From contig JAZKDF010000001.1 in NCBI GenBank assembly GCA_040387715.1, forward strand, positions 326,420 to 390,419: DNA of 64,000 bases, written 5' to 3'. The position numbers and the translations under genes are program-made. A model generated the notes under the pieces. That model was not told the DNA's origin, searched no databases, and saw nothing but the letters and a program-made list of their open reading frames with translations. Source of the stretch: Pseudomonadota bacterium. Lineage in GTDB: Bacteria; Pseudomonadota; Gammaproteobacteria; Burkholderiales; Burkholderiaceae. Every line of letters begins with the position of its first letter. The first letter of the stretch is position 1. This document shows positions 1,507 through 53,534 of the stretch, in pieces.

Positions 1507-4410
1507 TTGAATATGGGTGGTATTTCTCAGTGGGAGCAGCTCCATGTTGAGCTGACAGCGGCTCTTGGAAGTTCAGTTCATTTCGATACTGCGCATCAGG
1601 CCGTATACGCCTCGGAAGCCTCAAATTACCGTCAAATTCCGATTGGGGTTGTTACCCCTAGAAATACTGAGGAGTTTGTAAAAGGCATTGAGATCTGCCA
1701 TCGCAATCAGGCGCCGGTCCTCATGCGTGGTGCTGGCACCTCCATGAATGGACAAACAGTGAATAACGCTGTGGTGTTCGATATCTCCAAGTACTGTAAC
1801 CATATCCTTACCCTAGATCCGGCTGCTGGTAATGCTGTTGTTGAGCCGGGAGTCATCTGCGATTCATTGCGCGATGCCGCTGAGCTCCATGGCTTAACTT
1901 TTGCACCAGATCCTTCGACCCATAGCCGCTGCACATTAGGCGGTATGGTTGCCAATAACTCCTGTGGTGCCCATTCGGTGATGGCGGGCAAGACGCTTGA
2001 GAACACCGAGGCTTTAGAAATTCTGACCTATGATGGTGAACGTTTTTGGGTTGGCCCGACATCCGATCAAGAATTACAAGAAATTATTGCCGCTGGTGGA
2101 CGCAAAGGTCAGATCTATCAGGACTTACTGACTCTGCGTGATCGCTATGCGGATTTGATTCGTGCCCGCTTCCCTAATATTAAGCGTCGCGTTTCTGGGT
2201 ATAACCTGGATCAACTCTTGCCTGAGAACGGATTTAACGTGGCTCGGGCCTTAGTGGGTACCGAAGGTACTTGTGCGCTGACTTTGGCGGCCAAGGTAAG
2301 GCTGGTAAAGAGTCCTGCCAAGCGAGTGGTTTTGGTGCTGGGCTTTGAGAATATCTACTTAGCGGGTGATGCTGTCCCCGAATACCAATCTTTTAATCCA
2401 ATCGCGATTGAGGGCTTAGATTACAAAATTATCCGCGGCTTGCAAGAGCGCAATTTGGCTAAAGCAGAAATTGATTTGCTTCCTCCTGGAAATGCTTGGG
2501 TAGTCGTGGAGTTTGGTGATGACACGCTTGAGGGAGCTATAGCTCAGGCTGAAAAAGCGCAGCAATATTTCAAGACAAGAACTAAAGGACCTCAGCCATC
2601 GACATGGTTGGAGCCCGATCCTTTGGTGCAAAAGCGTATCTGGTCTATTCGTGAGAATGGCGCCTCGGCCACACACCTATCGATTGATCCAAATTCTCCA
2701 GATCCAGTGGTGGGTTGGGAAGATGCTGCAGTCGATCCAGCGCGTTTAGGTGAGTATCTACGCGCTTTTCAGGCGCTAGTGGACTCTTATGAATATGAAA
2801 CCTCGCTCTATGGGCACTTTGGGGATGGCTGTATTCATGCACGCATTACTTTTAATTTCCGCTCTGCAGAAGGCGTTGCCAAATTTAGATCTTTTATTCG
2901 CGATGCGGCGACCTTGGTTGTTGAATTCGGTGGCTCACTGACTGGTGAGCATGGCGATGGGCAAGCTAGAGCAGAATTTTTGCCGATTATGTTTGGCGAA
3001 GAGTTGATGGGTGCGATGCATGAGTTCAAGCGCATCTGGGATCCGCAAAATAGGCTCAATCCTGGCAAAGTGGTTCACCCCTATCGCGTAGATGAAAACC
3101 TCCGTATGGGTCCAGAATACAAAGTCGTTAATATCAAAACGCGCCTGAATTTCTTGAGCCAAGAAGGCAATGGATTCCAAAGAGCAGTTGAGCGTTGTGT
3201 GGGTATGGGTAAGTGCCGTAGTGAAAAAGTTGGCACGATGTGTCCAAGCTATCGCGCCACTAAAGAAGAGCGCTTCTCCACTCGTGGACGTTCGAGACTT
3301 TTCTGGGAGATGATTCAAGGTGAAGTAGTGAAAGATGGCTGGGAAAGCAAGGAGCTTAAAGAGGCTCTGGATACGTGCCTCTCCTGTAAGGGCTGCAAGA
3401 GTGACTGCCCCGCTCACGTTGATATGGCTTCCTATAAGGCTGAGTTCTTATCTCACTATCACGAGACTAATGGCAGGCCGCGCCAGGCGCTCACTATGGG
3501 CCGTATTGGTGACTGGGCACCGTTGGCAAGTAAGTTCTCTTGGCTGATTAATGCGGTAATGCAGACGCCTGTGATCTCCAGTGTTGCCAAGTGGGTTGGC
3601 GGTGTTGCGCAAGAGCGCAGCTTACCCAAGTTTGCAAACCAATCTTTCAGAAAGCAATTTCAGAAATCAAAGGCTGCAAGTATTGGTCAGAAGAAGGTCA
3701 TTCTCTGGGTAGATACTTTCTGCGAGCACTTTCATCCTGAGGTCGCTAATGCGGCAGTAGAAGTTCTGGCGCATGCAGGCTTTGAGGCAACTTTGCCAAA
3801 GACACCTTTATGCTGTGGCCGTCCTTTGTACGATTTTGGCTACTTGGATCTGGCCAAGCAAAAACTCGAGAAAATTCTCGATGCGATCGGCACTGAGATT
3901 AAGGCAAATCCCAATGCACCTATTGCAGTAGTAGGTCTTGAGCCTGGCTGTATGTCGGTATTTAAAGATGAGTTGCTAAAGTTTTTCCCTCATGATCCAA
4001 GAGCCCAGCTCTTAGCTTCGAGCACGTATTTGCTGGGGGATTTCTTGCACGAACAGGGTTACACGCCACCACCTTTGGACTGTAATATCTTGGTGCACTC
4101 GCATTGCCATCAGAAATCTCTCTTTGGTACCAAAGGTGATGTGGCGTTGTTAGCGGCTTTGGGCGCTAAGGCGAACTATATTGATAGCGGTTGCTGCGGC
4201 ATGGCAGGCTCATTTGGATTTAACCCTGAGCATATAGAAATATCTAAAGCGGTTGGGGAGTTGGTATTACTTCCGGCTATCCGAGCTGCCGATCAAGAAA
4301 CAATTATTCTCACCAACGGGTTTAGTTGCCGAGAGCAGATCGAACAAGAAACTGGTCGCAAGGTGAAGCATTTAGCTGAGCTTTTGCAGATGGCGCATCA
4401 GGCAAAGTAA
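1507..4410 (+). CDS. FAD-binding/4Fe-4S oxidoreductase (GlcD-GlcF/YdiJ-like fusion; D-2-hydroxyacid dehydrogenase family)
   Basis: FAD_binding_4 motif (RGAGTS), GHFGDGCIH, GEHGDG, CxxCxxCxxxC ferredoxin motif, and CCG domains. Confidence 0.9.
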   Translation: MNMGGISQWEQLHVELTAALGSSVHFDTAHQAVYASEASNYRQIPIGVVTPRNTEEFVKGIEICHRNQAPVLMRGAGTSMNGQTVNNAVVFDISKYCNHILTLDPAAGNAVVEPGVICDSLRDAAELHGLTFAPDPSTHSRCTLGGMVANNSCGAHSVMAGKTLENTEALEILTYDGERFWVGPTSDQELQEIIAAGGRKGQIYQDLLTLRDRYADLIRARFPNIKRRVSGYNLDQLLPENGFNVARALVGTEGTCALTLAAKVRLVKSPAKRVVLVLGFENIYLAGDAVPEYQSFNPIAIEGLDYKIIRGLQERNLAKAEIDLLPPGNAWVVVEFGDDTLEGAIAQAEKAQQYFKTRTKGPQPSTWLEPDPLVQKRIWSIRENGASATHLSIDPNSPDPVVGWEDAAVDPARLGEYLRAFQALVDSYEYETSLYGHFGDGCIHARITFNFRSAEGVAKFRSFIRDAATLVVEFGGSLTGEHGDGQARAEFLPIMFGEELMGAMHEFKRIWDPQNRLNPGKVVHPYRVDENLRMGPEYKVVNIKTRLNFLSQEGNGFQRAVERCVGMGKCRSEKVGTMCPSYRATKEERFSTRGRSRLFWEMIQGEVVKDGWESKELKEALDTCLSCKGCKSDCPAHVDMASYKAEFLSHYHETNGRPRQALTMGRIGDWAPLASKFSWLINAVMQTPVISSVAKWVGGVAQERSLPKFANQSFRKQFQKSKAASIGQKKVILWVDTFCEHFHPEVANAAVEVLAHAGFEATLPKTPLCCGRPLYDFGYLDLAKQKLEKILDAIGTEIKANPNAPIAVVGLEPGCMSVFKDELLKFFPHDPRAQLLASSTYLLGDFLHEQGYTPPPLDCNILVHSHCHQKSLFGTKGDVALLAALGAKANYIDSGCCGMAGSFGFNPEHIEISKAVGELVLLPAIRAADQETIILTNGFSCREQIEQETGRKVKHLAELLQMAHQAK

Positions 4411-4430
4411 CAAATTTATTAATTAAGATC

Positions 4431-4464
4431 AAAAATCCTCCGAGAGCGTGTTCGGGGGATTTTT
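4431..4464. terminator. Intrinsic terminator, probably bidirectional
   Basis: AAAAATCCTCCGA...TCGGGGGATTTTT hairpin just after the stop at 4410. Confidence 0.75.
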
Positions 4465-4580
4465 TATTTGCACCGCCCAATTAAACGTGTTGGCAATATG
4501 GGAATCTCGATATTGAGTGTTTTGCTCTCTCTAGAGCGTAATATGTAATTTAGTTAATTACGTTACTTTCTGGAGCGCCT

Positions 4581-5855
4581 ATGAGTCATGAAATTGCATC
4601 TTACTTAGACCCTAAAAATCTTGGTGCTTGGGGCACTTACCTCGAACAGATTGATCGTGTAACCCCTTATCTAGGACCTCTTACGCGCTGGGTCGAGACT
4701 CTAAAACGACCAAAGCGATCCTTAATTGTGGATGTACCTATCGAGCTGGATAACGGCACCATTGCACATTTTGAAGGATATCGAGTTCACCACAATTTAT
4801 CTCGGGGTCCAGGTAAGGGTGGTATCCGCTTTCATCCGGATGTCACACTCTCTGAGGTCACCGCTTTATCAGCATGGATGTCGATAAAAACCGCAGTTGT
4901 GAACGTCCCATTTGGTGGTGCAAAAGGAGGAATTCGCGTTGACCCTAAAAAGCTATCGAACTCTGAGCTTGAGAGAATGACCCGACGTTTTACTAGTGAG
5001 ATCAATATGATGATTGGTCCTCAAAAAGACATTCCAGCGCCTGACGTCAATACCAACGAGCAAATCATGGCGTGGATGATGGATACCTATTGCGTTAATC
5101 AGGGCTATACGACCTCAGGCGTTGTCACTGGCAAGCCAATTTCACTTGGCGGAAGTTTAGGAAGAAGGGATGCGACTGGTCGAGGTGTTTTTGTGGTGGC
5201 AAGAGAGGCTTATGGACAGATGAACCGTCAGCTCTCTGGAGCGCGGATCGCGATTCAGGGTCTGGGTAATGTTGGCGGTCATGCGGCGCGTCTGTTTGCC
5301 CAGGCTGGCGCTAAGGTGGTGGCAATTCAAGATCACTCTGGTGCTTTGTACAACCCTAATGGTTTTGATATAGAGGCTTTGCTTCACCATGTCTCGCTTG
5401 CCCATGAGATCAATGGTTTTCCTGGTGAGGCCATTACCAGTCAACAATTTTGGTCATCACCCTGCGATATTTTGATACCTGCCGCATTGGAGTCTCAAAT
5501 AACTCCTGCTAACGCTGCGAGTATTCAGGCCAAATTAATTGTAGAGGGTGCTAATGGACCTACGACGCCAGAAGCTGATGACATCTTGAGGGATATGAAT
5601 ATTACCGTTGTCCCTGATGTGATTGCTAATGCCGGTGGAGTAACTGTGAGTTACTTTGAGTGGGTGCAAGATTTCTCTAGTTTCTTCTGGACTGAGGAGG
5701 AAATTAATAATCGTCTAGATATCTTGATGGTCGATGCATTCAAAGGAATTTGTGATGTAGCCAAGAAGCATGGTGTTAGCTTGAGAACCGCTACCTTTAT
5801 TGTCGGGTGCGAACGTATTCTGAAGGCTCGACAGATGCGAGGTTTGTATCCTTGA
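4581..5855 (+). CDS. gdhA: Glu/Leu/Phe/Val dehydrogenase (glutamate dehydrogenase)
   Basis: [27 protein letters not shown] and [13 protein letters not shown] motifs. Confidence 0.93.
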
Positions 5856-5940: not shown

Positions 5941-7485
5941 TTATGACCGAATTAAATAGTCAAATGCTGAGAGGGAAGCCTTGGCACCTTCACCCATGGC
6001 AATGATGATTTGCTTATAAGGTACTGTAGTGCAGTCTCCAGCAGCAAATACGCCTGGCATGGAAGTCTCGCCCTTGGCGTCAATCATGATTTCGCCGCGA
6101 GGGGATAATTCAATGACATCCTTTAACCAATCTGTATTGGGCAGCAAACCAATCTGCACAAAGATGCCTTCAAGTGCAATGTCATGCATCTGCTTATTGG
6201 CACGATCTTCGTATCTCAAGGTAGTCACTTTCCCATCGGCACCCAGAACTTCTTTGCTCAAAGCGTTCGTGATGATGGTGACGTTAGGCATGCTATTCAA
6301 TTTCTTTTGCAGGACCGCATCCGCACGCAACTTCGTATCGAATTCAACCAAGGTGACATGGCTCACGATGCCCGCCAAATCAATAGCAGCTTCAACCCCA
6401 GAGTTCCCTCCGCCGATGACTGCAACGCGCTTACCTTTGTAGAGGGGGCCATCGCAGTGCGGGCAGTAGGCGACACCTTTGCCGCGGTATTCTTGCTCGC
6501 CAGGTACATTCATTTCACGCCAGCGCGCACCGGTGCTCAGAATGACTGTCTTGCTTTTCAGGACTGCACCATTTTCTAGGGTGATGGCAATTTCGTCGCC
6601 AGTCTTACTTAAACTCTTAGCGGTTTGCAGGTTCATGACATCAACTTCATATTCCTTCACGTGCTGTTCCAGCGCCATTACCAGCTTAGGCCCCTCTGTT
6701 TCTTTAACGGAAATGAAGTTCTCAATACCGACGGTATCAGCAACTTGACCGCCAAAGCGTTGAGCTACAACACCAGTTCTAATGCCCTTTCTGGCCGAGT
6801 AGATTGCTGCCGATGCGCCTGCTGGACCACCACCAATGATAAGGGAGTCATAGGCAGGTTTAGCGCTCAATTTTTCCGCATCACGAGCTGAAGAGTTGGT
6901 ATCCAGTTTGGCGGCAATTTCTTCAACGCTCATACGACCTTGGCCAAAAACTTCGCCATTCAAAATCACGGTAGGTACAGCCATGATTTGATATTGATCT
7001 ACCAAGCCTTGGAATAGGGCGCCATCAATCATTTCATGCTCGATCTCTGGATTGAGGGCGGCCATGAGGTTCAAGGCCTGCACGACGTCTGGGCAGTTAT
7101 GGCATGACAGAGAAATAAATGTCTGAAAATGCTTCTTACCCTCTAAACCTTTAATGCTGTCAATCACATCTTGCTCAACTTTGGGTGGATAGCCACTAGT
7201 TTGCAAGATGGCCAAGATGAAAGAGGTCATCTCATGACCCATGGGCAAGCCAGAGAATGTAATGCGGGCAACTTCATCTGCCTTGGCCACGGTAAAGCTA
7301 GGAATGTTTTTACTGCTACCAGATGTCTTTACGGTGATCTTGCCGGATTGCTCAGCAACTTCATTCAATAGTTCGAGCATCTGCGCTGACTGGGAGCTGT
7401 CATCCAAAGTGGCTTCTAAAACAATGGGACTCTCAATTTTTTCAAAATAAGCCTTGAGCTGGGTCTTGATGTTTGTATCTAACAT
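5941..7485 (-). CDS. ahpF: Alkyl hydroperoxide reductase subunit F
   Basis: CHNC and CPHC redox motifs, GGGPAG and GGGNSG nucleotide-binding motifs, 514 aa. Confidence 0.97.
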
Positions 7486-7605: not shown

Positions 7606-8169
7606 TTAGATCTTGCCTACGAGATCTAAAGATGGAGTCAATGTAGCTGCGCCTTCTTTCCACTTCGCTGGGCAAACTTCACCTGGATGTGCGGCTGTGT
7701 ATTGAGCTGCTTTGAGCTTACGCAATGTCTCAGAGATGTCGCGAGCGATTTCATTTGAGTGAACTTCAGCTGTCTTGATGATGCCTTCAGGATTGATGAT
7801 GAATGTGCCGCGCAATGCGAGACCTTCTTCTTCAATGTGAACACCAAAACCACGTGTCAATGTATGAGTTGGATCGCCAACCAATGGGAACTTGGCCTTA
7901 CCTACAGCCGGTGAAGTCTCATGCCATACTTTGTGTGAAAAGTGAGTATCGGTAGTGATGATGTATACCTCTGCACCCATCTTCTGGAATTCAGCATAGT
8001 TATCAGCTGCATCTTCAATTTCTGTAGGGCAGTTAAATGTGAATGCTGCAGGCATGAAAATCAATACTGACCATTTGCCTTTGAGGGTCTCGTCAGAAAC
8101 AGTGACAAACTTGCCGTTATGGAAGGCTTGAGTCTTAAATGGTGGAACTGGTGTGTTGATTAATGACAT
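7606..8169 (-). CDS. ahpC: Alkyl hydroperoxide reductase subunit C (2-Cys peroxiredoxin)
   Basis: FTFNCPTE and GEVCPAKW motifs. Start placed at MSLINT, after an AGGAGA RBS. Confidence 0.97.
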   Translation of the reverse strand: MSLINTPVPPFKTQAFHNGKFVTVSDETLKGKWSVLIFMPAAFTFNCPTEIEDAADNYAEFQKMGAEVYIITTDTHFSHKVWHETSPAVGKAKFPLVGDPTHTLTRGFGVHIEEEGLALRGTFIINPEGIIKTAEVHSNEIARDISETLRKLKAAQYTAAHPGEVCPAKWKEGAATLTPSLDLVGKI

Positions 8170-8253
8170 AGGATTCTCCTGTAAAAAATGAAATAGTTGA
8201 TGCACAACAGGAGTAATTCTAGGCCTTATTTATTTATTTGCATAATGAATAAT

Positions 8254-14291: not shown

Positions 14292-14613
14292 AAAAACTCT
14301 TTAACCTACTGATTTAAATGAATAAAATATATAAGCGATGGATATCTGTGCCCATCACCGCCTAGCAATATCAAGGTATTAGCGCGATCAGATTTGCGTT
14401 TATTCACTATCAATTTTGGGTAAATGCATTGCGTAAAGGGTTGTTGTGGAGTCAGTTGCAGTTACTCAAGGTGGCATATTTTCAGGTGCTGGAAGGCCTC
14501 AATTCAGCCATTAGGCAGAGTTGCACTTCCCAGGAGGGGTAAGGGGGGCGTAATGAGCTATCCTCTTGGCTATTAGCCCTAGAGCTAGCTCCTCAACATC
14601 TTTTTTGGTTCTT

Positions 14614-16506
14614 ATGAAATCCAAGCGCCCCATTCTGAATAATCGAATAATTCTTTTTGCATTCATAGCTGCACTGGTTTCGAGCGGTCAAGTGATGGCG
14701 GCCGCTTGTTCTTCTTCGGTTTCGCCTTATGCGGTTGATTGTGATGCCTCGGGTATTAATTGGACCTCTGGAAGCTTAAGTGTAAACAGCGGAGTGACAT
14801 TGCTAGATAGTGCGAGTTTTAGCTTTAGAACGCCTGGTGGCAGCTTTACTAACAATGGCTCTATTACGAATACAAGAGCGGGTGATATCGCATTAGTCGT
14901 TGGTGATGGCGGGGCGCCAATAAATATATCAAATATTACTAATAATGGCTCTATGACTGGCGGTCAAAGTGCGATACAAACTTTTAACAGTGTGACCATA
15001 AATACACTATCAAATAGTGGGGCTCTCAATGCGCAATATGGCCTCTATTTTCAGTCCAGCAATGTAATTGGGGATTTAATTAATACGGGCACAATTACAG
15101 GCACTGTAAGTGGCATCAAATTTACAGGTGGTACTGTCACTACGATTACCAACACTGGGACTATTAGCGGTGGAATTTATAACTACGATCCATTTCCATT
15201 TGGCATCCCACGCGTTAGCACAATTGGAACTCTCATCAATTCCCAGGGCATGGGAAATGCTGCAGGGGCCTTAACTTATTCAGGTAAGCTCCCAAGCAAC
15301 TACAGCATCATCATCAACAGCCCTACTAGTTTTGGAAAGCTAGCGGTAACTAGTGCATCAGGATCTACTACATTTGGTATCTATGCTGGATCCACGGTTG
15401 CTAACGGAACTTATGCTGCTGTTATATCGGGCCTGTCGGCTGGCAACTTCACCGCAACAGCTGGTACTTTAGGCGCGGGAACTTGGACCTTAAGCAATAG
15501 CTCTGGGAGTATTTGGGATTTAATAATTTCCGGATATGTTGTTATGCCAGTAGGCCCTTCGACCGCCAATACCCAGCAATCTTTAGTCAACACATCTCAA
15601 GTCTTACAAGGCTCCTACACCTTACAAAATTCAGTCTTGGCCAACAGCTTTACTTATGACTGTGCTTTATTTGATAAGAACAATGTTTGTATTTCTGCTG
15701 GTGGTCGTAACACTGCTGTGTCAGCTGCAAATGGCTTAAACAATACGAGTGGTTTATTGATTGCTGCATACCGTCCACACATGAATTATCGTGTGGGGGC
15801 ATACGTTGATCAGAACCTCTCAGTAAATAATGCTGGCTCTACTGTGAACTTAGGCAATAACACTCCACTCATTGGCTTGTTTGGTGCATGGAATGGGCGT
15901 CTTGATGGCACTGGTGCGGAGGTGAAAGTATCAGCTGCTTATGGCCAAAAGAACGCTACTGTTACTCGTGGCGTAGTTGGTGCAGGATCTACGGCATCCG
16001 AAGCAGGCACGGGCGGGTCACAGCTTAATAGTCGGGGCGCACAAGTGGTTGCCAAATATGGCTTCGGCGTTGCAGAGAGCGCGATTGTTTCTCCGTACGC
16101 TGGTATTCGCTATACCCAGAATAATATGGGTGGCTATACAGAAAGTAATTCAAGTGCGGTAACGGCGCCACTGACATACTCAGCACTCAATACCAACGCA
16201 ACAACGGCATTAGCTGGTGTGGGGGCTTCCTATCGTTTTATTCCACAAGCAACAGCGTTTGCTAGCGCTGGCGTGGAGACCGATACGAATACCGCTAACG
16301 GCTCTTATTCTGCAACTGGAGTAACTGGTTTAACCCCAGTCAATTTCAATGCCAATCCTGTGAAGACCCGTCCAACGGCAATGGTGGGTGCCACCTATGA
16401 TGTGGAAAAGAATCAGCGTATTGGTGTAACAGGCATTTATCGCCAAGAGCCATATCAGGCAGTTTCTACAACTACTGTGATGGCGACTTATACGGTTGGT
16501 TTGTAA
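14614..16506 (+). CDS. Autotransporter (type Va) with a Gly/Thr/Asn/Ser-rich beta-helical passenger
   Basis: Signal peptide, repeated TITNTGTI-like units, and a C-terminal amphipathic beta-barrel ending YTVGL. Confidence 0.8.
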   Translation: MKSKRPILNNRIILFAFIAALVSSGQVMAAACSSSVSPYAVDCDASGINWTSGSLSVNSGVTLLDSASFSFRTPGGSFTNNGSITNTRAGDIALVVGDGGAPINISNITNNGSMTGGQSAIQTFNSVTINTLSNSGALNAQYGLYFQSSNVIGDLINTGTITGTVSGIKFTGGTVTTITNTGTISGGIYNYDPFPFGIPRVSTIGTLINSQGMGNAAGALTYSGKLPSNYSIIINSPTSFGKLAVTSASGSTTFGIYAGSTVANGTYAAVISGLSAGNFTATAGTLGAGTWTLSNSSGSIWDLIISGYVVMPVGPSTANTQQSLVNTSQVLQGSYTLQNSVLANSFTYDCALFDKNNVCISAGGRNTAVSAANGLNNTSGLLIAAYRPHMNYRVGAYVDQNLSVNNAGSTVNLGNNTPLIGLFGAWNGRLDGTGAEVKVSAAYGQKNATVTRGVVGAGSTASEAGTGGSQLNSRGAQVVAKYGFGVAESAIVSPYAGIRYTQNNMGGYTESNSSAVTAPLTYSALNTNATTALAGVGASYRFIPQATAFASAGVETDTNTANGSYSATGVTGLTPVNFNANPVKTRPTAMVGATYDVEKNQRIGVTGIYRQEPYQAVSTTTVMATYTVGL

Positions 16507-22303: not shown

Positions 22304-23101
22304 ATGCCCCCATTCCTTCAATCTAATTTGCGCGTGGTTGAGTTTGCACCACTGTTGCTGACTATTGCCACTTTTATTTGCATTGCAATTGGTTGGTATT
22401 TTGGGCACTACCGCCTAAACAAGCATCGTGAGGGTGGAATTGTTGTTAGAGACTCTTTAGTTGCTGCAATTTTTGGTTTATCTGCTCTGGTTTTAGGCTT
22501 TACATTTTCTGGGTCTGCATCGAGATACTTTGATCGGATGGATGAAATTAGGGTTCAGGCGCAAACCTTGCAACAGGTATACGGTTCTCTTAAATATCTT
22601 GCCCCAAGCGATCAAATTAAGATTAGAGCTTCTCTTAATGAGTTATTGGATTTAAGGCTGTCCGCATATAAGGACATTAAATCAATGACGGATGTGGATG
22701 TTGAGGGATCCAAGATCATGGCCTCAGTTAGAAGGATTCAGGAGGAGGTAAGCAGAGCAGTAGCGAATGCCCCTGTCGAAAATAAAGGTTTAGTTGCCGA
22801 TTTATTAATACCTCAGGTTAGCAGCCTTTCCTCGACTTATGCTGCGGGGATCGTTAAGAGTAAGTCCCATCCGCCCAGCTTATTAATGAAGTTCTTATTT
22901 GCGATGCTTTGTATTGGAGCATTTTTAATTGGTTATACGATGGCGGTCAAGAAAGAGCATGACTGGCTATTGGCTACACTTTATACGCTTCTAATAGGCA
23001 TATCTCTGTATGTAATACTCTCTTTAGAGGTCCCTAATCTATTGATGCCCTATGATGAGATCAACCGTGATTTCTTGTTGCTCAAAGAGGCAGTGAAGTA
23101 A
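22304..23101 (+). CDS. DUF4239-like membrane protein
   Basis: AIFGLSALVLGFTFS, SHPP and ILSLEVP pattern, with four hydrophobic segments. Confidence 0.7.
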   Translation: MPPFLQSNLRVVEFAPLLLTIATFICIAIGWYFGHYRLNKHREGGIVVRDSLVAAIFGLSALVLGFTFSGSASRYFDRMDEIRVQAQTLQQVYGSLKYLAPSDQIKIRASLNELLDLRLSAYKDIKSMTDVDVEGSKIMASVRRIQEEVSRAVANAPVENKGLVADLLIPQVSSLSSTYAAGIVKSKSHPPSLLMKFLFAMLCIGAFLIGYTMAVKKEHDWLLATLYTLLIGISLYVILSLEVPNLLMPYDEINRDFLLLKEAVK

Positions 23102-23138: not shown

Positions 23139-24398
23139 ATGCAAAATATACTCAGAGTCAGCCGTCATTTAGTGCTTAGCACTCTGAGCTTATTATTGGT
23201 TGGATGTACTACGGGCATTACCCCAGACTTTGGGCAAATGTCTTCAAAATACGCAAATTCCCTAGAGCAATATCAAATTAATATGATTTTCCAAAACATC
23301 TTGCGTGCCTCTGAAAATAGGCCCGTTAGTTTTTTGGATATGCCAACAATTAACGGTTCTGGATCTATCGGTGTTGCGTCTGGAGTTAGTGCCTTATTTT
23401 CTGGTGGGGCAATACCCTACAACGCTAGCTACAACGTCATTCAGGGTGGACTTTCGTATGCCATACCAAGCACCACTCTCTCGTTAAACAATACATTTAA
23501 TTTCACACAATCATCCCTGGATAACGCTGTATTTTGGAAAAGTTATCTCAATGAGCTTCCTAGGGAAACGGTAAAGTATTTCAATCACAATCACATTCCA
23601 AAAGAAGTGCTTTTGAGTTTAGTGGTTGATGAAATCGAAATTTTTCAACCGAATAGCAAATCTATAGTTCTAATTAATAACCCATTAAGATCAGATCATC
23701 AGCAGTTTCAGCAACAGCTCTATAGGCTTATTGATGATGGCTTTACTGCTGAGCTAATTGATACATCGGAGAAATTAGGACCTCCACTTTCAATGGAAAA
23801 AGTGGTGCCAAGGTTTGGGGACAAGGCCTTTGTGATGTTTAAAGAGTCCAATATCTCTCTCAAGCAAACCAATGATTCTCAAAATCCGCTTTACCAGCCA
23901 ATTCAGATTTCTAATAAATATAAACTTTGTATCAACTCTGATAAGTACGCCAATTACTTGCCTGCAAAAAAATATGGTCAAACACTCTTTTGCGAAGAGA
24001 GTGCTCCCGAAGTTTTATTAAAAACTAGTGCGGCAAAGAAGCGTCAGCCGACATTGATTGTTCGCATTCGCTCTACTAATAATGTTTTTGAGTATCTGGG
24101 GCAAGTTGTGAGGGCTCAACTTTCTGATAACCCTTACTTGGTTACCTTGCCTTCAACGGAAACTACATTCAATAGCAATAGAGGTAAGCTGAATCAGAAT
24201 GCATTGTTAATTGTTAACAAAGATAAGCCAACGCAGAAAGCATTTGCAACTATTGAAGGTTTGGATGGCGATATTTACAGCATTCCTAGTGTAGATAATG
24301 GTTATTCGCCCTTAGCAATCAAATTGCTATCCCAGTTGATGTCGCTTCAAAAGATCCCGGGCAGCATACCGGCCTCACCATCTGTACTCCTGAAATAG
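23139..24398 (+). CDS. Uncharacterised lipoprotein
   Basis: Lipobox LLLVG-C, 419 aa. Confidence 0.7.
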   Translation: MQNILRVSRHLVLSTLSLLLVGCTTGITPDFGQMSSKYANSLEQYQINMIFQNILRASENRPVSFLDMPTINGSGSIGVASGVSALFSGGAIPYNASYNVIQGGLSYAIPSTTLSLNNTFNFTQSSLDNAVFWKSYLNELPRETVKYFNHNHIPKEVLLSLVVDEIEIFQPNSKSIVLINNPLRSDHQQFQQQLYRLIDDGFTAELIDTSEKLGPPLSMEKVVPRFGDKAFVMFKESNISLKQTNDSQNPLYQPIQISNKYKLCINSDKYANYLPAKKYGQTLFCEESAPEVLLKTSAAKKRQPTLIVRIRSTNNVFEYLGQVVRAQLSDNPYLVTLPSTETTFNSNRGKLNQNALLIVNKDKPTQKAFATIEGLDGDIYSIPSVDNGYSPLAIKLLSQLMSLQKIPGSIPASPSVLLK

Positions 24399-24643
24399 CG
24401 GCCTAATATCCAATCTAGAGCTTTAGTATTGCCGATGGGCCGCCTGAGTTTCGGGCTCTCGGCCGGCTACTTAATTGGTCTGCAGCAGGAGGGCTAATCA
24501 ATCTACGCTTCTTGGGAAATGAATTTGACTGGATTCTAGGCGTACTTTCAGAACTTCCGTTTTAACCCCTATTAGATTAATTTAAGCTATAGTGAAAACT
24601 ATCAAATATGCCATTTGGCGCATTGCAAGTGGAAGGGGTGGCG

Positions 24644-24919
24644 ATGAGTTTCACGCGTAGGGATTTTATAAAAAGTCTTGCAGCTACCGCTGCTCTAATG
24701 GGCTCTGCTTCTGCAATTGCTAGCAGTGATTCTGTCGCAAGTAAGGCTGCCATTGAGAAATCCATTAAGGCCAGTTTTGGCGGTGGTTTTTCACTCATTT
24801 CCTATTCCAAATCTGGTGCAACAACCCAAGCCAAAATAGAAAATTTTGGCAATCAATACACCGTCACTTCCATGAATTTGCTTGATTGGAAAATTATTCA
24901 ATCCTCATTAAGCAGCTGA
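24644..24919 (+). CDS. Small twin-arginine (Tat) signal protein upstream of the lodA-like gene
   Basis: MSFTRRDFIKSLAATAALMGSASAIAS, with a GAAGGGG RBS. Confidence 0.75.
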   Translation: MSFTRRDFIKSLAATAALMGSASAIASSDSVASKAAIEKSIKASFGGGFSLISYSKSGATTQAKIENFGNQYTVTSMNLLDWKIIQSSLSS

Positions 24920-24977
24920 TACCTTTTTCATTCTGGGTTTTAGGGTGGTGAAGATTAATTTATTTGAAGGATAAATA

Positions 24978-26978
24978 GTGTCTAGCAAAATCAAGAGCAT
25001 TCGTATTCACCCTGGTATTGGTATGGCCCGCATGGGTGATAGTGATGAGTTTTTTATTGGCCCCGAAGCTCCAGGCCTTGTTGTAGATCCAGGAGGCAGT
25101 AACGGTCCCGGACCCAAAGGGGGTAGTTATCGAGATAGCAAATCTAAGTTAAAAAGGCAGGCGCAACGTTATCGCGTATATGCCTACGATGCTGAGGGTA
25201 ACGTGATTGAGGAGCTCACATCTAAATCTGACCTAGTCAAATCTCTGAGCTGGCGTGTTCACGTCCGCAATATGAAAGCGGCAAACTATGCTTTTCAGGG
25301 TGCATATCTTTTTGACCCAACCCAATTAAGAAACCCATCCATTCAACCGGGCAAGAAACCAATTGAGCGCAATCAATTAATTATTGATCCAGGAGTGCAA
25401 ACCATTGCCTCAGGCCAAAGTGGGCCAGTCGTTATGAAGGGTGATATTTTTACCGGCATCGAAAAAGGTTTGTTGCCAGGGCAGTTGCGATATGAGGGCT
25501 TTACGCCAAAAGATATTTCTAAAGATGTCGAAGTAACTTATAAGCCTGCTAAAGGAATTGAGCTTGGGCAGTTACGTCTTGATGCACAAGATCGCCTGTT
25601 ATTTATTCCGTCTCCTGGCAAGGGGGCTTGCGTTACAACACCTAAGGTAGCTCTATCTAATCCTAGTGAATTCATCAATCCACCCAATGGCCCTGACAAT
25701 GGAAAGAATCCATTAACCAATCAGTTTGCTTACTTTAACGTTCCGGGTTGGTGGGATGATACGTGTGGTGGTGAAATTGATGTAACCATTACATTAAAAG
25801 ATGGCACCGTTTTAAGCACTCGAGACAATGTGAAGGCTGCAACGGATGAGGGAACTCGAAATCCAGCGGCTGGAGCCTGGATTATTACGGCACCACCAAA
25901 ATTTTCTCCATACATGTATCACGTAGTTTCCATTACAGATCGTGTGTATGAGGCATTCCCAGAGGCTTACCCCTACGCCAAACAAAAAACCAACTTTTAT
26001 CGAGACGTTTACCCCATTTTTGCTAACGCTGTAAATTATGGATGGGTGAGTGCAGAAGCCTCCGGTATTGCTAAGGCCCATAGAAATGCAGCGCATGGAC
26101 CAAATCAAGCGGGTAATCTGCTAAGTCCAACCTATATGGCCTTTTTTACGGATCCCTCTGAGAAGGGTAAATCTATGCGGCAGATGGTCTATGCTTTAAT
26201 GCGCCATCCGGCCGGCAAGAATGGGCGCTTAGTCGACTCTTTAATGCCGCCGCCTCCGCAAAAACCGACCAGCTGGAAAAATGATGAATTCAAAAGGGCT
26301 GAGCAAGATAACCTCATGCCTATATTGTGGGGAACCGCTGGCAAGCCAAAGCAAAATGAGCAACTGGGAAATCATTTCCCCAATCAATTTTTAGCCCTTA
26401 CCGCAATTCAGTTAAATCATATTAAAGAATGGGCTGATGGAAATTTTGAGGTTGGAGTTTTGCAGCAGCCGCTCGAATTGGAAAAATTACCCACAAAAGA
26501 TCAGCCGCGCGCTCTTGATGCTTCCGCGTTAGAGCCTACTATCGGTGGAGGTTTTCACCCCGGAATTGAATTCCCCTATTTAATTATTTACCGAGAGTTT
26601 TTTGCTGAAGCATTTCGGGTTGGCAAGAATGTAGAGCCTGGAGCGTTGGCAGCCTATATGTCCAGTCCATGGCATGGTGATTTCTGGTCATGTAATAGTG
26701 CCTGGTGGCCAACTCAGCGCCCAGATGTAGTTTTTGAGTACGATCAGAAGAATCAAACTCGAACTTATAGAGAGTGGTTCAGGGGTTATGACGCAGATGG
26801 CGAGCCATTGTCAGATACTGATGGCTTTAATCAAATGGCGTATGCCTGGTCAAAGTTGGGTATGGTGTTGCCGATTAAAGCGAAGGACGGCAGCTTTGTT
26901 AAGGACAATGGTGCGGTTGTCTTTACTGAGCAAGAGCGAAGCCCGGAGCTGAATCGGCCGCCAGTAAAAAAGAAGTAA
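24978..26978 (+). CDS. LodA/GoxA-family CTQ-dependent amino-acid oxidase
   Basis: IHPGIGMARMG, KRQAQRYRVY, GWWDDTCGG, GGGFHPGIE and PWHGDFWSC..WWPTQRPD motifs. Confidence 0.9.
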   Translation: MSSKIKSIRIHPGIGMARMGDSDEFFIGPEAPGLVVDPGGSNGPGPKGGSYRDSKSKLKRQAQRYRVYAYDAEGNVIEELTSKSDLVKSLSWRVHVRNMKAANYAFQGAYLFDPTQLRNPSIQPGKKPIERNQLIIDPGVQTIASGQSGPVVMKGDIFTGIEKGLLPGQLRYEGFTPKDISKDVEVTYKPAKGIELGQLRLDAQDRLLFIPSPGKGACVTTPKVALSNPSEFINPPNGPDNGKNPLTNQFAYFNVPGWWDDTCGGEIDVTITLKDGTVLSTRDNVKAATDEGTRNPAAGAWIITAPPKFSPYMYHVVSITDRVYEAFPEAYPYAKQKTNFYRDVYPIFANAVNYGWVSAEASGIAKAHRNAAHGPNQAGNLLSPTYMAFFTDPSEKGKSMRQMVYALMRHPAGKNGRLVDSLMPPPPQKPTSWKNDEFKRAEQDNLMPILWGTAGKPKQNEQLGNHFPNQFLALTAIQLNHIKEWADGNFEVGVLQQPLELEKLPTKDQPRALDASALEPTIGGGFHPGIEFPYLIIYREFFAEAFRVGKNVEPGALAAYMSSPWHGDFWSCNSAWWPTQRPDVVFEYDQKNQTRTYREWFRGYDADGEPLSDTDGFNQMAYAWSKLGMVLPIKAKDGSFVKDNGAVVFTEQERSPELNRPPVKKK

Positions 26979-26984
26979 TGGGCA

Positions 26985-28172
26985 GTGCTGAATTTAGCTG
27001 ACGCTTTTGGATTGGATTGGGATGTCGTCATTATTGGCGCCGGACCCGCAGGCTCAGCAACTGCTATTACGTTGACATCCCTGGGTCAGCGAGTCCTACT
27101 GATCGATGAGAAGGTGGCGGCTAAATATAAATTAGGTGAGTCTCTGCCACCCGCCTCAGTTGATATCGTGAGTCACTTCTTGGGTGATCTAGATTCTCCC
27201 GATCGAAAAGCTATTGGCCTGTTCAAGACGGCCGGTAATATTTCCACATGGTCTGGTGAGCAACAGGATCATGCTGATTTCTTTTTTACTGCAAAAGGAT
27301 TTGGTTTATGTATTGACCGACTTGCTTTTGATGAGGCGCTTCGTTTGCGCGCGTTAGAGCTAGGCGCATCTTTGCAGAGGGGAATCAGCTTTGAGTCGTG
27401 CGCTCGTAGTTCTGAGTCTGGATTTAGTTGGGATATTATCCTTAATTCCCCATCAAAAGTAGAGCATCATCGCGCACGCTATTTAGTCGACTGCTCAGGT
27501 CGTCGCGCGGTGCTTAGCAAGATGCTTGGTATTCCTGTCGTTGAAAATGAAGACAAGCTATTTGCCTATGCACAATGGTTTACTAGTGATGTAGCGGATG
27601 ATGACTGCTTTACTCGTATTGAGGCTGTGGAGAATGGCTGGTGGTACAGCAATCGGGTGCCTGGTGATGACCTTGCCGAAAATAAGCGCTTAGTTGTTTT
27701 TTATTCAGATAGAGACTTGCCAGATGGTAAAAAAGCTGGGACCTTAGGGGGTTTTGATGAACTTCTTAGTGAGACCAGCCAAATTGCACCTCTTCTGAAG
27801 AATGGTGCATATCAGGCTTCGGGAGTAATTCGGGGCGCGCCTGCTAATGGTCAGCGTTTAAGTGAATTCTGCGGAGATGCTTGGATGGCGGTTGGGGATG
27901 CAGCGCAGGCCTATGACCCGCTGTCATCGCAGGGTATTGATAAGGCACTGAGAACAGGTAGTCACGCTGGCCACCTAATTCATTATGCTTTGACGGATGA
28001 GTCCGGCAATACCTTAGGCGCTAATAATCCCTATATTCAACAATACAACGAAAAACAGCAGCAGCTTTGGGAAGAATACCAATCCCAAAGGGCTTACTAC
28101 TATGGTATTCAGACTCGTTGGGCTGATCAGCCATTTTGGCTACGTCGTCACAATTATTCGACTGTAATTTGA
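26985..28172 (+). CDS. LodB/GoxB-family flavoprotein (CTQ biogenesis)
   Basis: IIGAGPAG, GWWY and AVGDAAQAYDPLSSQGI motifs. It directly follows the lodA-like gene. Confidence 0.85.
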   Translation: MLNLADAFGLDWDVVIIGAGPAGSATAITLTSLGQRVLLIDEKVAAKYKLGESLPPASVDIVSHFLGDLDSPDRKAIGLFKTAGNISTWSGEQQDHADFFFTAKGFGLCIDRLAFDEALRLRALELGASLQRGISFESCARSSESGFSWDIILNSPSKVEHHRARYLVDCSGRRAVLSKMLGIPVVENEDKLFAYAQWFTSDVADDDCFTRIEAVENGWWYSNRVPGDDLAENKRLVVFYSDRDLPDGKKAGTLGGFDELLSETSQIAPLLKNGAYQASGVIRGAPANGQRLSEFCGDAWMAVGDAAQAYDPLSSQGIDKALRTGSHAGHLIHYALTDESGNTLGANNPYIQQYNEKQQQLWEEYQSQRAYYYGIQTRWADQPFWLRRHNYSTVI

Positions 28173-28858
28173 ACGATACCTCTGGATTTTCCAGAATCAG
28201 AATCAATTGTTTTTAATGAAGCTAGTAAATCACTAGTCTTGACCCAAAATGGCGGATATTTAAATTTAGCTACATCTAAAATTAACACTGAATCTGATTT
28301 AGAGTCATAGGCGCCAATCGGTGAGAAATGTCCACTCCCTGCTTGGTTTAATACTTTCCGATCAAAGTCAGCCATCACGCGTTGATTTGGATTGGCAAGT
28401 GTAGATTTGACTATATTCCTGAGTTGATCAACTGTGAGATCGCTCCCATAGTAAATTTTGGGGTTTGCTCCCAGCGCAGTTAAATATTGACGTATTTGCT
28501 CTAAAGTTAAGCCACCATTTAGTACATCATCCCGACTCTTAATCTTAGTGGTTGCTTCGTTAAAGATGCTTTCTTCTGTAAAGAATGGGTGAGGCGCAAG
28601 TTCTGGGGTGATCGGGCGAACCATCTTTGGAAGACTATTTAGAGTGGCTGCCATCGATGATATTCCACAAAAGGTAGTGCGCTCTTGAGTATCGACATAG
28701 CTAGCGAGTGAAAAATATTGACGGTTATAGTCAGAGTTCAATAGGCGGCTTGAACCTGCCTTTGTATTGATATATACCAAGTCCTGGCAAAAGACGTTGG
28801 ATATCAATCCGAACAGCAGAAAAGTTGCTGCAATCAAACTTTTAGTATTGCGGTTCAT
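28154..28858 (-). CDS. Secreted phytochelatin-synthase-like (papain-fold) protein
   Basis: Signal peptide, with a Cys-His-Asp triad in TFCG, GHFSPIGAYD and LILDVAKFKYPPFWV. Confidence 0.85.
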   Translation of the reverse strand: MNRNTKSLIAATFLLFGLISNVFCQDLVYINTKAGSSRLLNSDYNRQYFSLASYVDTQERTTFCGISSMAATLNSLPKMVRPITPELAPHPFFTEESIFNEATTKIKSRDDVLNGGLTLEQIRQYLTALGANPKIYYGSDLTVDQLRNIVKSTLANPNQRVMADFDRKVLNQAGSGHFSPIGAYDSKSDSVLILDVAKFKYPPFWVKTSDLLASLKTIDSDSGKSRGIVQITVE

Positions 28859-50280: not shown

Positions 50281-50319
50281 AAGAAAAGGGACCACATTTC
50301 TGTGATCCCTTTGTATTAC

Positions 50320-50395
50320 TGGTGGGTCGGGCGAGATTCGAACTCGCGACCAACGGATTAAAAGTCCGCTGCTCTACCGACTGAGCTACCGACCC
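50320..50395 (-). tRNA. tRNA-Lys (anticodon UUU), with encoded CCA
   Basis: GGGTCGGTAGCTCAGTCGGTAGAGCAGCGGACTTTTAATCCGTTGGTCGCGAGTTCGAATCTCGCCCGACCCACCA, a 76-nt cloverleaf. Confidence 0.98.
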
Positions 50396-50407
50396 AGTAA
50401 GAACGAA

Positions 50408-50416
50408 ATTATAGCA
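50408..50416 (-). promoter_or_regulatory. Extended -10 promoter of tRNA-Lys
   Basis: TGCTATAAT on the minus strand, 12 nt upstream of the tRNA. Confidence 0.6.
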
Positions 50417-50481
50417 AGAACTTGGTTTGGCTTCCCTAGGTTTCCTGGGTTTGCCCTCTGCGCCTTGTAATTACAAGAGCG

Positions 50482-51819
50482 CTATGCGTTTGCTCGTCTG
50501 GCAACCGGCGGGTTTTTGGAGAAATAGTCCTTAATTCCCCTCAAAATGGCCTCAGCAATTTGATCTTGGTAGACATCGTCATTTAGGCGGGCTTCTTCTT
50601 GCGGGTTGCTGATAAAGGCGGTCTCAACCAAGATTGAGGGGATATCAGGGGCCTTGAGAACCGCAAAGCTCGCTTGCTCTACTTTTCCTTTGTGTAGAGG
50701 TGCAAATCCACTAATTCGCTTCAGAATGGAGCTGCCAACCTGAAGTGAGTCTTTAATTTGGGCGGTTGTGGACATATCTAGCAATAGGTTTGCTATTTGC
50801 TTATCTTGCGTCTTAATGTTGATACCGCCAATTAAGTCGGAAGCATTTTCTTTGTTGGCCATCCAGCGTGCCATTGTGCTACTGGCTCCCATTTGTGAGA
50901 GTGCAAAAACTGAGGCACCTTTAGCTCTTGGCTCTATGAACGCATCCGCATGAATGGAGACAAATAAATCTGCTTCCACTCGTCGTGCTTTCTGTACGCG
51001 AGTATGAAGGGGTACAAAGTAATCCCCATCCCTAGTCAGAAATGGGCGCATATAGGGGTCATTCTCAATCTTGTCGCGAAGGCGCTTGGCAATAGAGAGT
51101 ACGACATGCTTTTCTTTGGAGCCCATAGCGCCAATAGCACCCGGATCTTCTCCACCATGGCCGGCATCGATTGCAATAGTGATGAGGCGTTTGTATTTCG
51201 CTTGAGCGGGAAGTTCTTTGACATCGGGAATTGCTTGAGCTACTGGAGCCTTTGGAGCATCTTTCTCTTTCTTTTTTGCAAACTGCGCAATCAGGTCGAC
51301 TTCTTCATTGGCTTTTTCTAGTGCGCTTTCTTTACGGGCGCTACTCTTTACCAATTCCATTAAGGGGTCTGGCGGAGTTGCTGGGTAGAGGTCTAGAACC
51401 ATGCGGTATTGATACTCTGCGATTGGATCCAGCGTAAATAGCTGTGGCTTCACAGGTTCTTTCAGGTCAAATACCAGGCGCACCATGCCGGGTTGAAATT
51501 GACCTACACGAATTTGTGAAACATAAGGATCATTTGGTTTTACTTTGGCTACCAAATCTTTCAGAGTGGCATTTAATTCCATACCCTGCACATCAACGAC
51601 TAAGCGATCAGGGTTCGTGAGTAGTTGTTGGGTAATGGGCAACGCTTTATCCGACTCGAGCGTGATGCGCGTGTAATCCTCTGCAGGCCAAATACGCACA
51701 CCTAGGATCTTGGCGCCCCAGGCAATTTCCGCCTCACTGAAAAAAAAGATGAAGCCCAGCATCTTTGCTGAATTCTGGAGATGCTTTCTTCTGGACGGGT
51801 TGATAGGAGTTTTGCTCAT
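50482..51819 (-). CDS. amiC: N-acetylmuramoyl-L-alanine amidase with AMIN domain
   Basis: Tat-like leader (SRRKHL), AMIN domain, and DAGHGGEDPGA, SIHADA and VETAFISN motifs. Confidence 0.93.
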   Translation of the reverse strand: MSKTPINPSRRKHLQNSAKMLGFIFFFSEAEIAWGAKILGVRIWPAEDYTRITLESDKALPITQQLLTNPDRLVVDVQGMELNATLKDLVAKVKPNDPYVSQIRVGQFQPGMVRLVFDLKEPVKPQLFTLDPIAEYQYRMVLDLYPATPPDPLMELVKSSARKESALEKANEEVDLIAQFAKKKEKDAPKAPVAQAIPDVKELPAQAKYKRLITIAIDAGHGGEDPGAIGAMGSKEKHVVLSIAKRLRDKIENDPYMRPFLTRDGDYFVPLHTRVQKARRVEADLFVSIHADAFIEPRAKGASVFALSQMGASSTMARWMANKENASDLIGGINIKTQDKQIANLLLDMSTTAQIKDSLQVGSSILKRISGFAPLHKGKVEQASFAVLKAPDIPSILVETAFISNPQEEARLNDDVYQDQIAEAILRGIKDYFSKNPPVARRANA

Positions 51820-51821
51820 TT

Positions 51822-52352
51822 CTATTGGGAGTGCATTTTTTCTACAACAGCTCTTCCCTGGTCTGAGCTTGCCTGGAGGCTAATATTTCTTGCGTTTTCA
51901 TCCTCTGCCGAACTGAGTTGAATCTGAATATCAAATGCGGGTAGCGTACCCTCAGCTTTTTCTGGCCACTCCACCAAGCAGAATCCAGGCTCATCAAAAT
52001 GCTCTGCAAAGCCTGCCTCTTGCCACTCTAGTGGATCTCTCATGCGATACAGATCAAAGTGATGGGCGGTGATGCAGATTGCGTGATTTGCATCACTGCT
52101 TTTGATTTGAACGGGGTAGGGCTCGCACAAGGTGTAAGTTGGACTCTTAACCCTGCCTTTATATCCCATAGCCTGTATTAGGTAGCGGGCAAAAGTGGTC
52201 TTACCGGCTCCCAGATCGCCTTCCAGGGATATATTGAGGTGGGCACTCTCCGTTGTTTGAAAAAGATGGCTAAGACTGAAGGCAAGCTTTTGTGCCAAAG
52301 CAGTTGTATCTGCTTCCTGCCTACAATGTTGAGTAAATAAATTCTGAGCCAT
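51822..52352 (-). CDS. tsaE: t6A biosynthesis ATPase
   Basis: GDLGAGKTT, VKSPTY, HFDLYR and VEWPEK motifs. Confidence 0.95.
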   Translation of the reverse strand: MAQNLFTQHCRQEADTTALAQKLAFSLSHLFQTTESAHLNISLEGDLGAGKTTFARYLIQAMGYKGRVKSPTYTLCEPYPVQIKSSDANHAICITAHHFDLYRMRDPLEWQEAGFAEHFDEPGFCLVEWPEKAEGTLPAFDIQIQLSSAEDENARNISLQASSDQGRAVVEKMHSQ

Positions 52353-52395
52353 TTGCCTAGTTTATTCAATTATTAAGCTACATTCTGTATTCCCA

Positions 52396-53490: not shown

Positions 53491-53534
53491 GTCCGCCTTG
53501 CCAATTTCATCCCCATCTCACTTACAATGAGTCC

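Follow-up and report, generated by a model that had tools for sequence, protein, structure and literature searches.

The window analysed here is a 64,000-nt stretch of a Burkholderiaceae genome (assembly GCA_040387715.1, contig JAZKDF010000001.1, positions 326,420 to 390,419), and it carries a conserved cassette of three co-directional genes encoding, in this order, a small protein with a twin-arginine translocation (Tat) signal, a signal-less quinoprotein of the LodA/GoxA family, and a LodB-type flavoprotein. The reading that we favour, with a probability of roughly 0.55, is that of a mobile cassette equipped with its own Tat escort: the cysteine tryptophylquinone (CTQ) cofactor would be made in the cytoplasm, the folded enzyme would be exported together with the small protein, and amines would be deaminated in the periplasm. 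This proposal draws on sequence comparisons and on the analogy with known Tat systems. An earlier prediction made from the same DNA, hereafter the original prediction, had recognised a LodA/LodB-type pair at 24978-28172, and its open reading frames (ORFs) and coordinates proved exact and in agreement with Pfam and NCBIfam matches. The Tat-signal gene located upstream was missed, however, and its presence changes the likely cell biology of the enzyme.

Several lines of sequence evidence indicate that the gene pair very probably encodes a CTQ enzyme and its maturase. The 666-aa protein was matched by Pfam LodA_N (PF17990; 2e-40, 139.6 bits against a cutoff of 26.3) and LodA_C (PF18417; 4e-26, 91.9 bits against a cutoff of 25), and both domains were found in 21/21 members of the clade to which it belongs. 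The motifs SALEPTIGGGFHPGIEFPY and PWHGDFWSCNSAWWPTQRP occur at nt 26523-26579 and 26667-26723, respectively, and the Pfam, NCBIfam and motif matches of the pair are far beyond chance. Based on a HMMER alignment with the LodA structures 3WEU and 2YMW, Asp568 and Cys572 fall on LodA Asp512 and Cys516, and Trp577, the second Trp of SAWWP, falls on Trp581; BLAST against the GoxA of P. luteoviolacea (PlGoxA) agreed with this, pairing the same three residues with Asp678, Cys682 and Trp697. The CTQ signature is thus intact, as had been predicted, and its Asp, Cys and Trp are near-invariant, being present in essentially all sequences covering the region among the best 150 family representatives. These were aligned under the guidance of a hidden Markov model (HMM), and 137 of them aligned at the positions counted here and below. 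The WWP that closely follows the Cys had also been pointed out; it is present, at a Cys-to-Trp spacing of 5, but this is nothing unusual since 111/137 representatives share it, and it is the structurally characterised LodA (spacing 65) and PlGoxA (spacing 15) that are atypical in having an insert between the two residues. Foldseek searches against the PDB returned 50 significant matches, all of them LodA or GoxA (E ~1e-24 to 1e-15), with template modelling (TM) scores of 0.42-0.49 that are low because the AlphaFold2 (AF2) model of the enzyme is of moderate quality (predicted local distance difference test, pLDDT, 67.7).

For these comparisons, full-length PlGoxA was recovered from its genome (L087), with a residue numbering consistent with the mutant names in PDB titles. 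An ortholog from an uncultured Marinomonas (L086) served as the LodA reference, because that of Marinomonas aquiplantarum (L085) is truncated after 300 aa. In this last locus, the lodA ortholog ORF (3992-4894) is preceded by a reverse-transcriptase-like ORF and followed by a large unrelated ORF, and the gene may be disrupted.

The flavoprotein gene starts 6 nt past the quinoprotein stop codon. Its 395-aa product lacks a signal peptide, has the dinucleotide-binding motif GAGPAGS, matches Pfam families of flavin adenine dinucleotide (FAD)-dependent monooxygenases and halogenases, and scored 201 bits on NCBIfam LodB, 195 on GoxB and 158 on QhpG, all below the equivalog cutoffs. In 67/74 loci, a lodB gene was called after the lodA-like gene on the same strand, the gap being most often 3 nt, and most of the remaining 7 stop at a contig edge. 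As summarised in PMC7876137, flavoproteins of this kind act on a precursor with a mono-hydroxylated Trp and bring CTQ to completion. In Chenggangzhangella methanolivorans (L004/L054), lodB is called as two pieces of 308 + 117 aa and the small Tat gene is split over two frames, reflecting either a decaying cassette or assembly indel errors.

The third component is the 91-aa protein encoded upstream of the quinoprotein. Its N-terminus, M-S-F-T-R-R-D-F-I-K, contains a canonical twin-arginine motif, the RR of which does not vary among 40 aligned sequences, and leads into a stretch of mild hydrophobicity and Ala-x-Ala sites. The ATG at 24644, preceded by GGAAGGGG, is almost certainly the true start, and a longer ORF from 24608 is probably not used; an identical 91-aa gene call exists (P0271). 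Across 80 genome loci encoding clade members, the small gene was detected immediately before the lodA-like gene in 74 by tblastn and in 75 by HMM, always on the same strand and at a median distance of 76 nt. Since four of the five loci missed by HMM are interrupted by contig ends, the small gene is present in 75/76 testable loci, and it is absent from the nearest outgroups, P0122 and P0124. Searches starting from the small protein retrieved only unnamed proteins or proteins called 'twin-arginine translocation signal domain-containing protein', on contigs that carry the same trio. The enzyme itself has no such signal: the LodA_N match begins at residue 11, the ORF cannot be extended upstream of 24978, and no signal peptide is therefore possible, while no [ST]RR Tat motif was found on the enzyme in any of 270 family proteins. 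The AF2 model of the small protein comprises a disordered signal peptide followed by a helix (residues 28-45) and four strands, with pLDDT values of 80-89. Its mature part contains invariant Lys39, Lys42, Phe45, Gly46, Phe49 and Trp82 residues, the two lysines being part of the invariant EKSIKASFGGGF motif. Pfam searches with the small protein returned TAT_signal only, with no MelC1 homology, and its alignment contains no conserved His, Cys or Met for metal delivery.

Family knowledge and Tat biology suggest how the three products may work together. The quinoprotein precursor would fold in the cytoplasm, where the FAD enzyme would complete the cysteine tryptophylquinone between Cys572 and Trp577, and because the cofactor would be built there the enzyme would have to cross the membrane folded. 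It would do so by binding the small protein and hitchhiking through Tat, as MelC1 carries the tyrosinase MelC2, and the signal peptide of the small protein would then be cut at an Ala-x-Ala site. Hydrogenase small and large subunits are another Tat hitchhiker pair. Once in the periplasm, the enzyme would oxidatively deaminate a primary amine via a CTQ Schiff base, releasing an aldehyde and ammonium, with electrons passing to O2 (yielding H2O2) or to periplasmic c-type cytochromes. Taken separately, the co-export step has, by analogy, about an even chance of being correct. The arrangement expected of a Tat hitchhiker, a signal-less cofactor enzyme beside a partner with a TRRDFIK signal, is what was found at 75/76 loci, and Tat export has a precedent in the family, since in the GoxA group the enzyme carries its own Tat signal (PMC3948610; PMC4417212, section 10).

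A number of points weigh against this scenario. Binding of the small protein to the enzyme is a prediction from gene neighbourhood, and no fusion of the two (Rosetta-stone) was found among 270 family proteins. No PDB entry significantly matches the predicted helix-on-four-stranded-sheet fold (best E 0.07), and one clade member, Gilvimarinus algae (L065), is truly devoid of the small gene. The AF2 confidence of the enzyme is poor around the active site (pLDDT <50 for residues 520-534 and 560-604), and what can be guessed of the substrate is based on two residues. Finally, a signal peptide is missing from the majority of LodA-family proteins, even from the secreted LodA, and its absence is therefore not diagnostic by itself.

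Some of these points would also suit a small protein that is no escort but an independent periplasmic inhibitor, immunity or regulatory partner, cystatin- or BLIP-like, with a quinoprotein that is either cytoplasmic or exported otherwise. Its predicted fold, a helix on a sheet, is of a generic type, and its weak and non-significant structural neighbours include cystatin-fold, NTF2-like and BLIP-like proteins as well as a type VI immunity protein; LodA occurs in supernatants without a signal peptide (secretion discussed in PMC3948610), and one clade member does without the small gene. We nonetheless regard this possibility as doubtful, given the strict same-strand adjacency of the small gene upstream of a signal-less enzyme at 75/76 loci, the harm that an H2O2-forming amine oxidase would cause in the cytoplasm, and the periplasmic pentahaem cytochrome encoded by relatives in the same operon. 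Another role, that of a substrate, was considered for the small protein, the quinoprotein being in this case a peptidyl-lysine oxidase acting on Lys39 and Lys42. Both residues lie within an invariant motif, and the oxidation of an epsilon-amine by LodA is chemically akin to that catalysed by lysyl oxidase. This is highly improbable, however, as there is no family precedent, no further processing or export gene is found at the cassette, and a folded domain with a Tat signal is more in keeping with a partner than with a precursor peptide.

The pentahaem cytochrome also bears on the fate of the electrons. In 13 divergent clade loci (Table 1), lodB is immediately followed by a gene for a Sec-signal protein of 830-1060 aa with 5 conserved CxxCH motifs (pentahaem cytochrome c), which has weak Pfam cytochrome matches only and no PDB relative. 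The carriers, which are marine gammaproteobacteria and Rhodobacterales, encode quinoproteins at most 67% identical to that of the window. This association argues for periplasmic action and leaves room for a dehydrogenase mode, in which, on the pattern of quinohemoprotein amine dehydrogenases (QHNDH), c-type cytochromes and the respiratory chain would take up the electrons of reduced CTQ and little or no H2O2 would be formed. Pointing in the same direction are a cytochrome c gene located divergently upstream in L001, the resemblance of the maturase to QhpG, and a match of the CTQ segment to the QHNDH gamma subunit (PF08992, QH-AmDH_gamma; 26613-26759, residues 546-594) that is below threshold in the window (19.6 bits against a cutoff of 25) and recurs, again below threshold, in 10/21 clade members. 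Yet no cytochrome gene was found in the cassette of the window or of any member at least 70% identical to it, both characterised family members are oxidases, and the cytochrome could equally be a detoxifier of the peroxidase type, so that this mode appears unlikely. The same low expectation attaches to a combined proposal, in which the cassette would be a three-component periplasmic CTQ system with an escort and, at least in the marine pentahaem relatives, a respiratory amine dehydrogenase instead of an H2O2-forming oxidase. The sub-threshold PF08992 matches, together with the homology between LodB and QhpG, hint at an ancestral Asp-x3-Cys...Trp module common to the LodA/GoxA and QHNDH CTQ systems.

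Mobility is the other element of the favoured escort reading. When ORFs within 10 kb were clustered over the 80 loci, only the three cassette genes were conserved. Consistent with this, tblastx comparisons of the window with L005-L009, L042, L011 and L018 revealed similarity limited to the cassette (limits in Table 1), with flanks that differ. The nearest relatives, with 91-94% protein identity, were Polynucleobacter and other Burkholderiales metagenome-assembled genomes, and in other genomes the surroundings included transposases, arsenic-resistance genes or toxin-antitoxin genes. Limited similarity and variable surroundings are thus those of an accessory, horizontally moving unit, and such movement explains why copies from alpha- and betaproteobacteria are 75-80% identical. 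By these comparisons, the cassette is a self-contained, horizontally mobile three-gene unit. Terminal direct or inverted repeats were considered at the cassette ends and discarded, the matches being short and at chance level. A promoter and terminator scan remained at background level, and searches for a riboswitch or known RNA upstream found none, Rfam being empty at E <=1 for 24300-25100 and returning tRNAs only in six related loci. In the Burkholderiaceae strain ZE-4 (L008, 13239-17486), a tRNA gene lies right next to the cassette, as do homologs of the window genes at 50300-54655, an arrangement from which the 22 kb separating the cassette from tRNA-Lys in the window (28208-50395) look like variable or island DNA inserted at a tRNA-Lys site.

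Table 1. Features of the cassette, its surroundings in the window, and the related pentahaem loci
Feature	Position	Strand	Basis or remark
Small Tat-signal protein gene, 91 aa	24644..24919	+	TAT_signal PF10518 and TIGR01409 matches
Twin-arginine codons Arg5-Arg6 within T-R-R-D-F-I-K	24656..24661	+	codons checked; invariant in 40-sequence alignment
LodA/GoxA-family CTQ quinoprotein gene, 666 aa, GTG start	24978..26978	+	Pfam LodA_N, LodA_C
Tyr252 (LodA Tyr211, PlGoxA Phe316)	25731..25733	+	alignments and residue counting on LodA orthologs
Loop T521-I-G-G-G-F-H527	26538..26558	+	alignments to LodA and PlGoxA
CTQ segment: Asp568 (26679-81), Cys572 (26691-93), Trp577 (26706-08)	26679..26708	+	structure-sequence alignment
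LodB-type FAD flavoprotein (predicted CTQ maturase) gene, 395 aa	26985..28172	+	NCBIfam maturase matches
Conserved three-gene cassette, approximate homology limits	24535..28208	.	tblastx against nearest relatives
ahpF	5941..7485		TIGR03140, above cutoff
ahpC	7606..8205		TIGR03137, above cutoff
646-aa ORF	14566..16506	+	no NCBIfam match
Bestrophin-like membrane protein	22304..23101	+	below Pfam threshold
Predicted lipoprotein, 419 aa	23139..24398	+	LLVGC lipobox, no family match
Secreted phytochelatin-synthase-like protein	28154..28858	-	PF05023 2e-54, signal peptide
tRNA-Lys(UUU)	50320..50395	-	
Pentahaem loci: L063-L066, L069, L073, L075-L078, L081, L083, L084	e.g. L063:10617-13436		

Among the genes next to the cassette in the window, that for the phytochelatin-synthase-like protein converges on lodB, with a 19-nt overlap at its 3' end, and is not conserved beside the cassette elsewhere. 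Upstream, neither the lipoprotein nor the bestrophin-like gene is conserved with the cassette.

The active-site loop had been described by the original prediction as a variant of a usual C-x-GG-x-FHPG motif in which Cys is replaced by Thr. The residue in question, Thr521, aligns with LodA Cys442 and with a Leu in PlGoxA, and His527 aligns with LodA Cys448 and PlGoxA His583. Cys is indeed the majority state at position 521 of the family (Cys 86, Thr 25, Gly 11, Ser 7 and Ala 6), but the motif taken as usual joins a Cys as in LodA to a His as in GoxA, and this combination occurs in only 12 of the 137 representatives, the counts at position 527 being Tyr 47, Phe 38, His 30 and Cys 5. Thr is the state of 25/137 representatives and is invariant, along with the entire EPTIGGGFHPGIEFPYL stretch, across 21 clade members sharing 59-84% identity. 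The Thr521-His527 pair is the signature of the clade and of its nearest long-form relatives. Judged from these alignments, Thr521 is a lineage trait and a signature of the clade, with no peculiarity of the window gene and no special active-site variant. Moreover, the Leu of PlGoxA means that a Cys at this position is unnecessary for CTQ oxidase activity. The idea that Cys263 and Cys521 are alternative sites of one required thiol was also rejected, the counts not being complementary (Cys263 only, 12; Cys521 only, 78; both, 7; neither, 29).

These observations have consequences for the initial proposal of a secreted antimicrobial oxidase, generating H2O2 from an amino acid, in which the Cys-to-Thr change would give a new specificity and ahpCF would protect the producer. 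LodA, AlpP and GoxA owe their discovery to an antimicrobial effect based on H2O2 production (PMC4417212, section 9; PMC3948610), the CTQ site is intact, and both ahpC and ahpF are real genes of the window. The proposal is nevertheless quite unlikely. Thr521 is invariant in the clade, shared by 25/137 family representatives and replaced by Leu in GoxA. The link between ahpCF and the cassette is unsupported, since this cytoplasmic housekeeping system lies 17 kb away and was linked to the cassette in 0/80 related loci. Hosts of the clade include nitrite oxidisers and a freshwater Burkholderiaceae strain with a small genome (2.3 Mb), whereas antimicrobial LodA-type oxidases have been described from the marine genera Marinomonas and Pseudoalteromonas, and the genomic context contains no pointer to an antimicrobial function.

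The remaining active-site residues depict a mixed picture. Within the PlGoxA active-site set, His583 is kept as His527 and Tyr766 apparently as Tyr604, whereas Phe316 is replaced by Tyr252 and His767 tentatively by Asp605, a position occupied by Asp or Gly across the clade; the alignment of the C-terminal part is weak. Two LodA residues, Cys448 and Lys530, are without a counterpart, His527 standing in place of the Cys and a spacing of 5 leaving no insert. As aligned, the active site is a hybrid that combines a GoxA-type His527 with a LodA-type Tyr252 and does not have the insert bearing LodA Lys530, so that lysine is probably not what it oxidises. Our guess would be a small compound, either an amine or an amino acid, with glycine as a weak default that we consider improbable. 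The original prediction had left the substrate unassigned; the quinoprotein is the ortholog of neither LodA nor GoxA, and no clade member has a known substrate.

This lack of orthology is apparent from its scores on the NCBIfam equivalogs for GoxA (NF038173, group II; 195.4 bits against a cutoff of 750) and LodA (NF038172, group IA; 116.4 bits against a cutoff of 600). Its identity is ~26% to the LodA ortholog and ~25% to PlGoxA. The family-tree placement suggested in the original prediction was carried out by neighbour joining and put the clade nearer the GoxA branch, GoxA being the nearest characterised enzyme, in a tree that serves as a rough guide since it relies on p-distances and has no support values. 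A search of 1.84 billion representatives yielded 1,863 clusters of the family (E <=1e-3), among which identity drops from a single representative at 60% straight to others at or below 45%, and the clade is therefore sharply bounded. Its homologs are 59-97% identical and distributed among alpha-, beta- and gammaproteobacteria, and the window sequence itself occurs in watershed and freshwater metagenomes, the runs holding it being DNA metagenome runs only, with no RNA run among them. The nearest outgroup, P0122 (41% identity; L102:866-2353), has a tyrosinase gene immediately upstream that overlaps its start, and a convergent lodB. An association with tyrosinase is reportedly found in group ID operons, which this arrangement echoes.

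Proteins of this type are already listed under the group 'None' in a published survey of the family (Campillo-Brocal et al. 2015; PMC4417212, Table S1). These are PT7_3642 of Pusillimonas sp. T7-7 (666 aa), NB311A_15287 of Nitrobacter sp. Nb-311A (666 aa), BC1002_7113 of Burkholderia sp. CCGE1002 (667 aa) and salmuc_02447 of Salipiger mucosus (685 aa), and their lengths of 666-685 aa agree with that of the window protein. Two of the corresponding genome loci, those of Nb-311A and Salipiger, turned up here as relatives of 74% and 60% identity with the same gene trio, and from such similarity the four proteins probably belong to the same clade. PMC4417212 gives only lodB as their partner, with no mention of the small upstream gene, and none of them was characterised. 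The clade had thus been seen earlier but left unclassified and uncharacterised. In searchable papers to mid-2026, lysine and glycine oxidase are the only characterised activities named for the family.

Conserved across three proteobacterial classes at 59-97% identity, mobile, and present in ecologically important hosts such as Polynucleobacter-like freshwater Burkholderiales, Nitrobacter, Nitrotoga and rhizobia, the clade is a good target in the search for a third activity. Its Tat-signal partner offers a concrete and testable answer to the question of how a signal-less quinoprotein matured in the cytoplasm reaches the periplasm, and anyone expressing enzymes of the clade is advised to include this third gene. 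If the enzyme does free ammonium from amines outside the cytoplasm, this would have a bearing on nitrogen scavenging in oligotrophs and nitrifiers. Should an escort and a dehydrogenase mode both prove true, the LodA/GoxA oxidases would be linked to quinohemoprotein amine dehydrogenases in mechanism as well as in evolution.

Compared with known systems, the quinoprotein shares with GoxA (M. mediterranea Marme_1655; PlGoxA, PDB 6BYW/6EER; maturase GoxB) the same two Pfam domains and fold, the CTQ Asp, Cys and Trp, a GGGFHPG loop with the equivalent of His583, a putative equivalent of Tyr766, and a flavoprotein gene immediately downstream; GoxA is also its best NCBIfam match. It differs from GoxA by Tyr252 for Phe316, by Asp605 for His767 (tentatively), and by a spacing of 5 instead of 15. 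In addition, GoxA groups IIA and IIB bear the Tat signal on the enzyme, whereas here it is found on a separate upstream protein. LodA, the L-lysine epsilon-oxidase of M. mediterranea (PDB 2YMW/3WEU; maturase LodB), has the same fold, provides the top Foldseek matches, and resembles the window enzyme in its CTQ residues, in Tyr211 (Tyr252), in the neighbouring lodB-type gene and in having no signal peptide. In contrast, its Cys448 and Cys442 are replaced by His and Thr, its 60-residue Cys516-Trp581 insert with Lys530 is absent from the window enzyme, and it has no upstream Tat-signal partner. QHNDH, in which the QhpC gamma subunit carries CTQ and QhpG is the flavoprotein, belongs to the same cofactor class, with a homologous maturase (158 bits) and a short Asp-x3-Cys...Trp segment; it is periplasmic and has haem c partners, in which some relatives of the clade may be alike. 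However, its CTQ resides in a crosslinked subunit of 80 aa and not in a 666-aa LodA-type protein, and the cassette has no genes for the radical-SAM protein QhpD, QhpE or QhpF. In gene organization the cassette parallels Streptomyces MelC1/MelC2, where a small Tat-signal helper gene likewise precedes that of a signal-less cofactor oxidase (PMC2758597). In this pair and in PaoABC, a further Tat hitchhiker, maturation of the enzyme takes place in the cytoplasm and export follows in the folded state (PMC2758597, PMC4273604). The small protein has no sequence similarity to MelC1, and the likeness, seen in the gene arrangement, is one of analogy and not of membership. The conserved Tat-signal partner, which would act in trans, is the noteworthy point in these comparisons, and makes the cassette a known system in a new architecture, more than one further member of the family.

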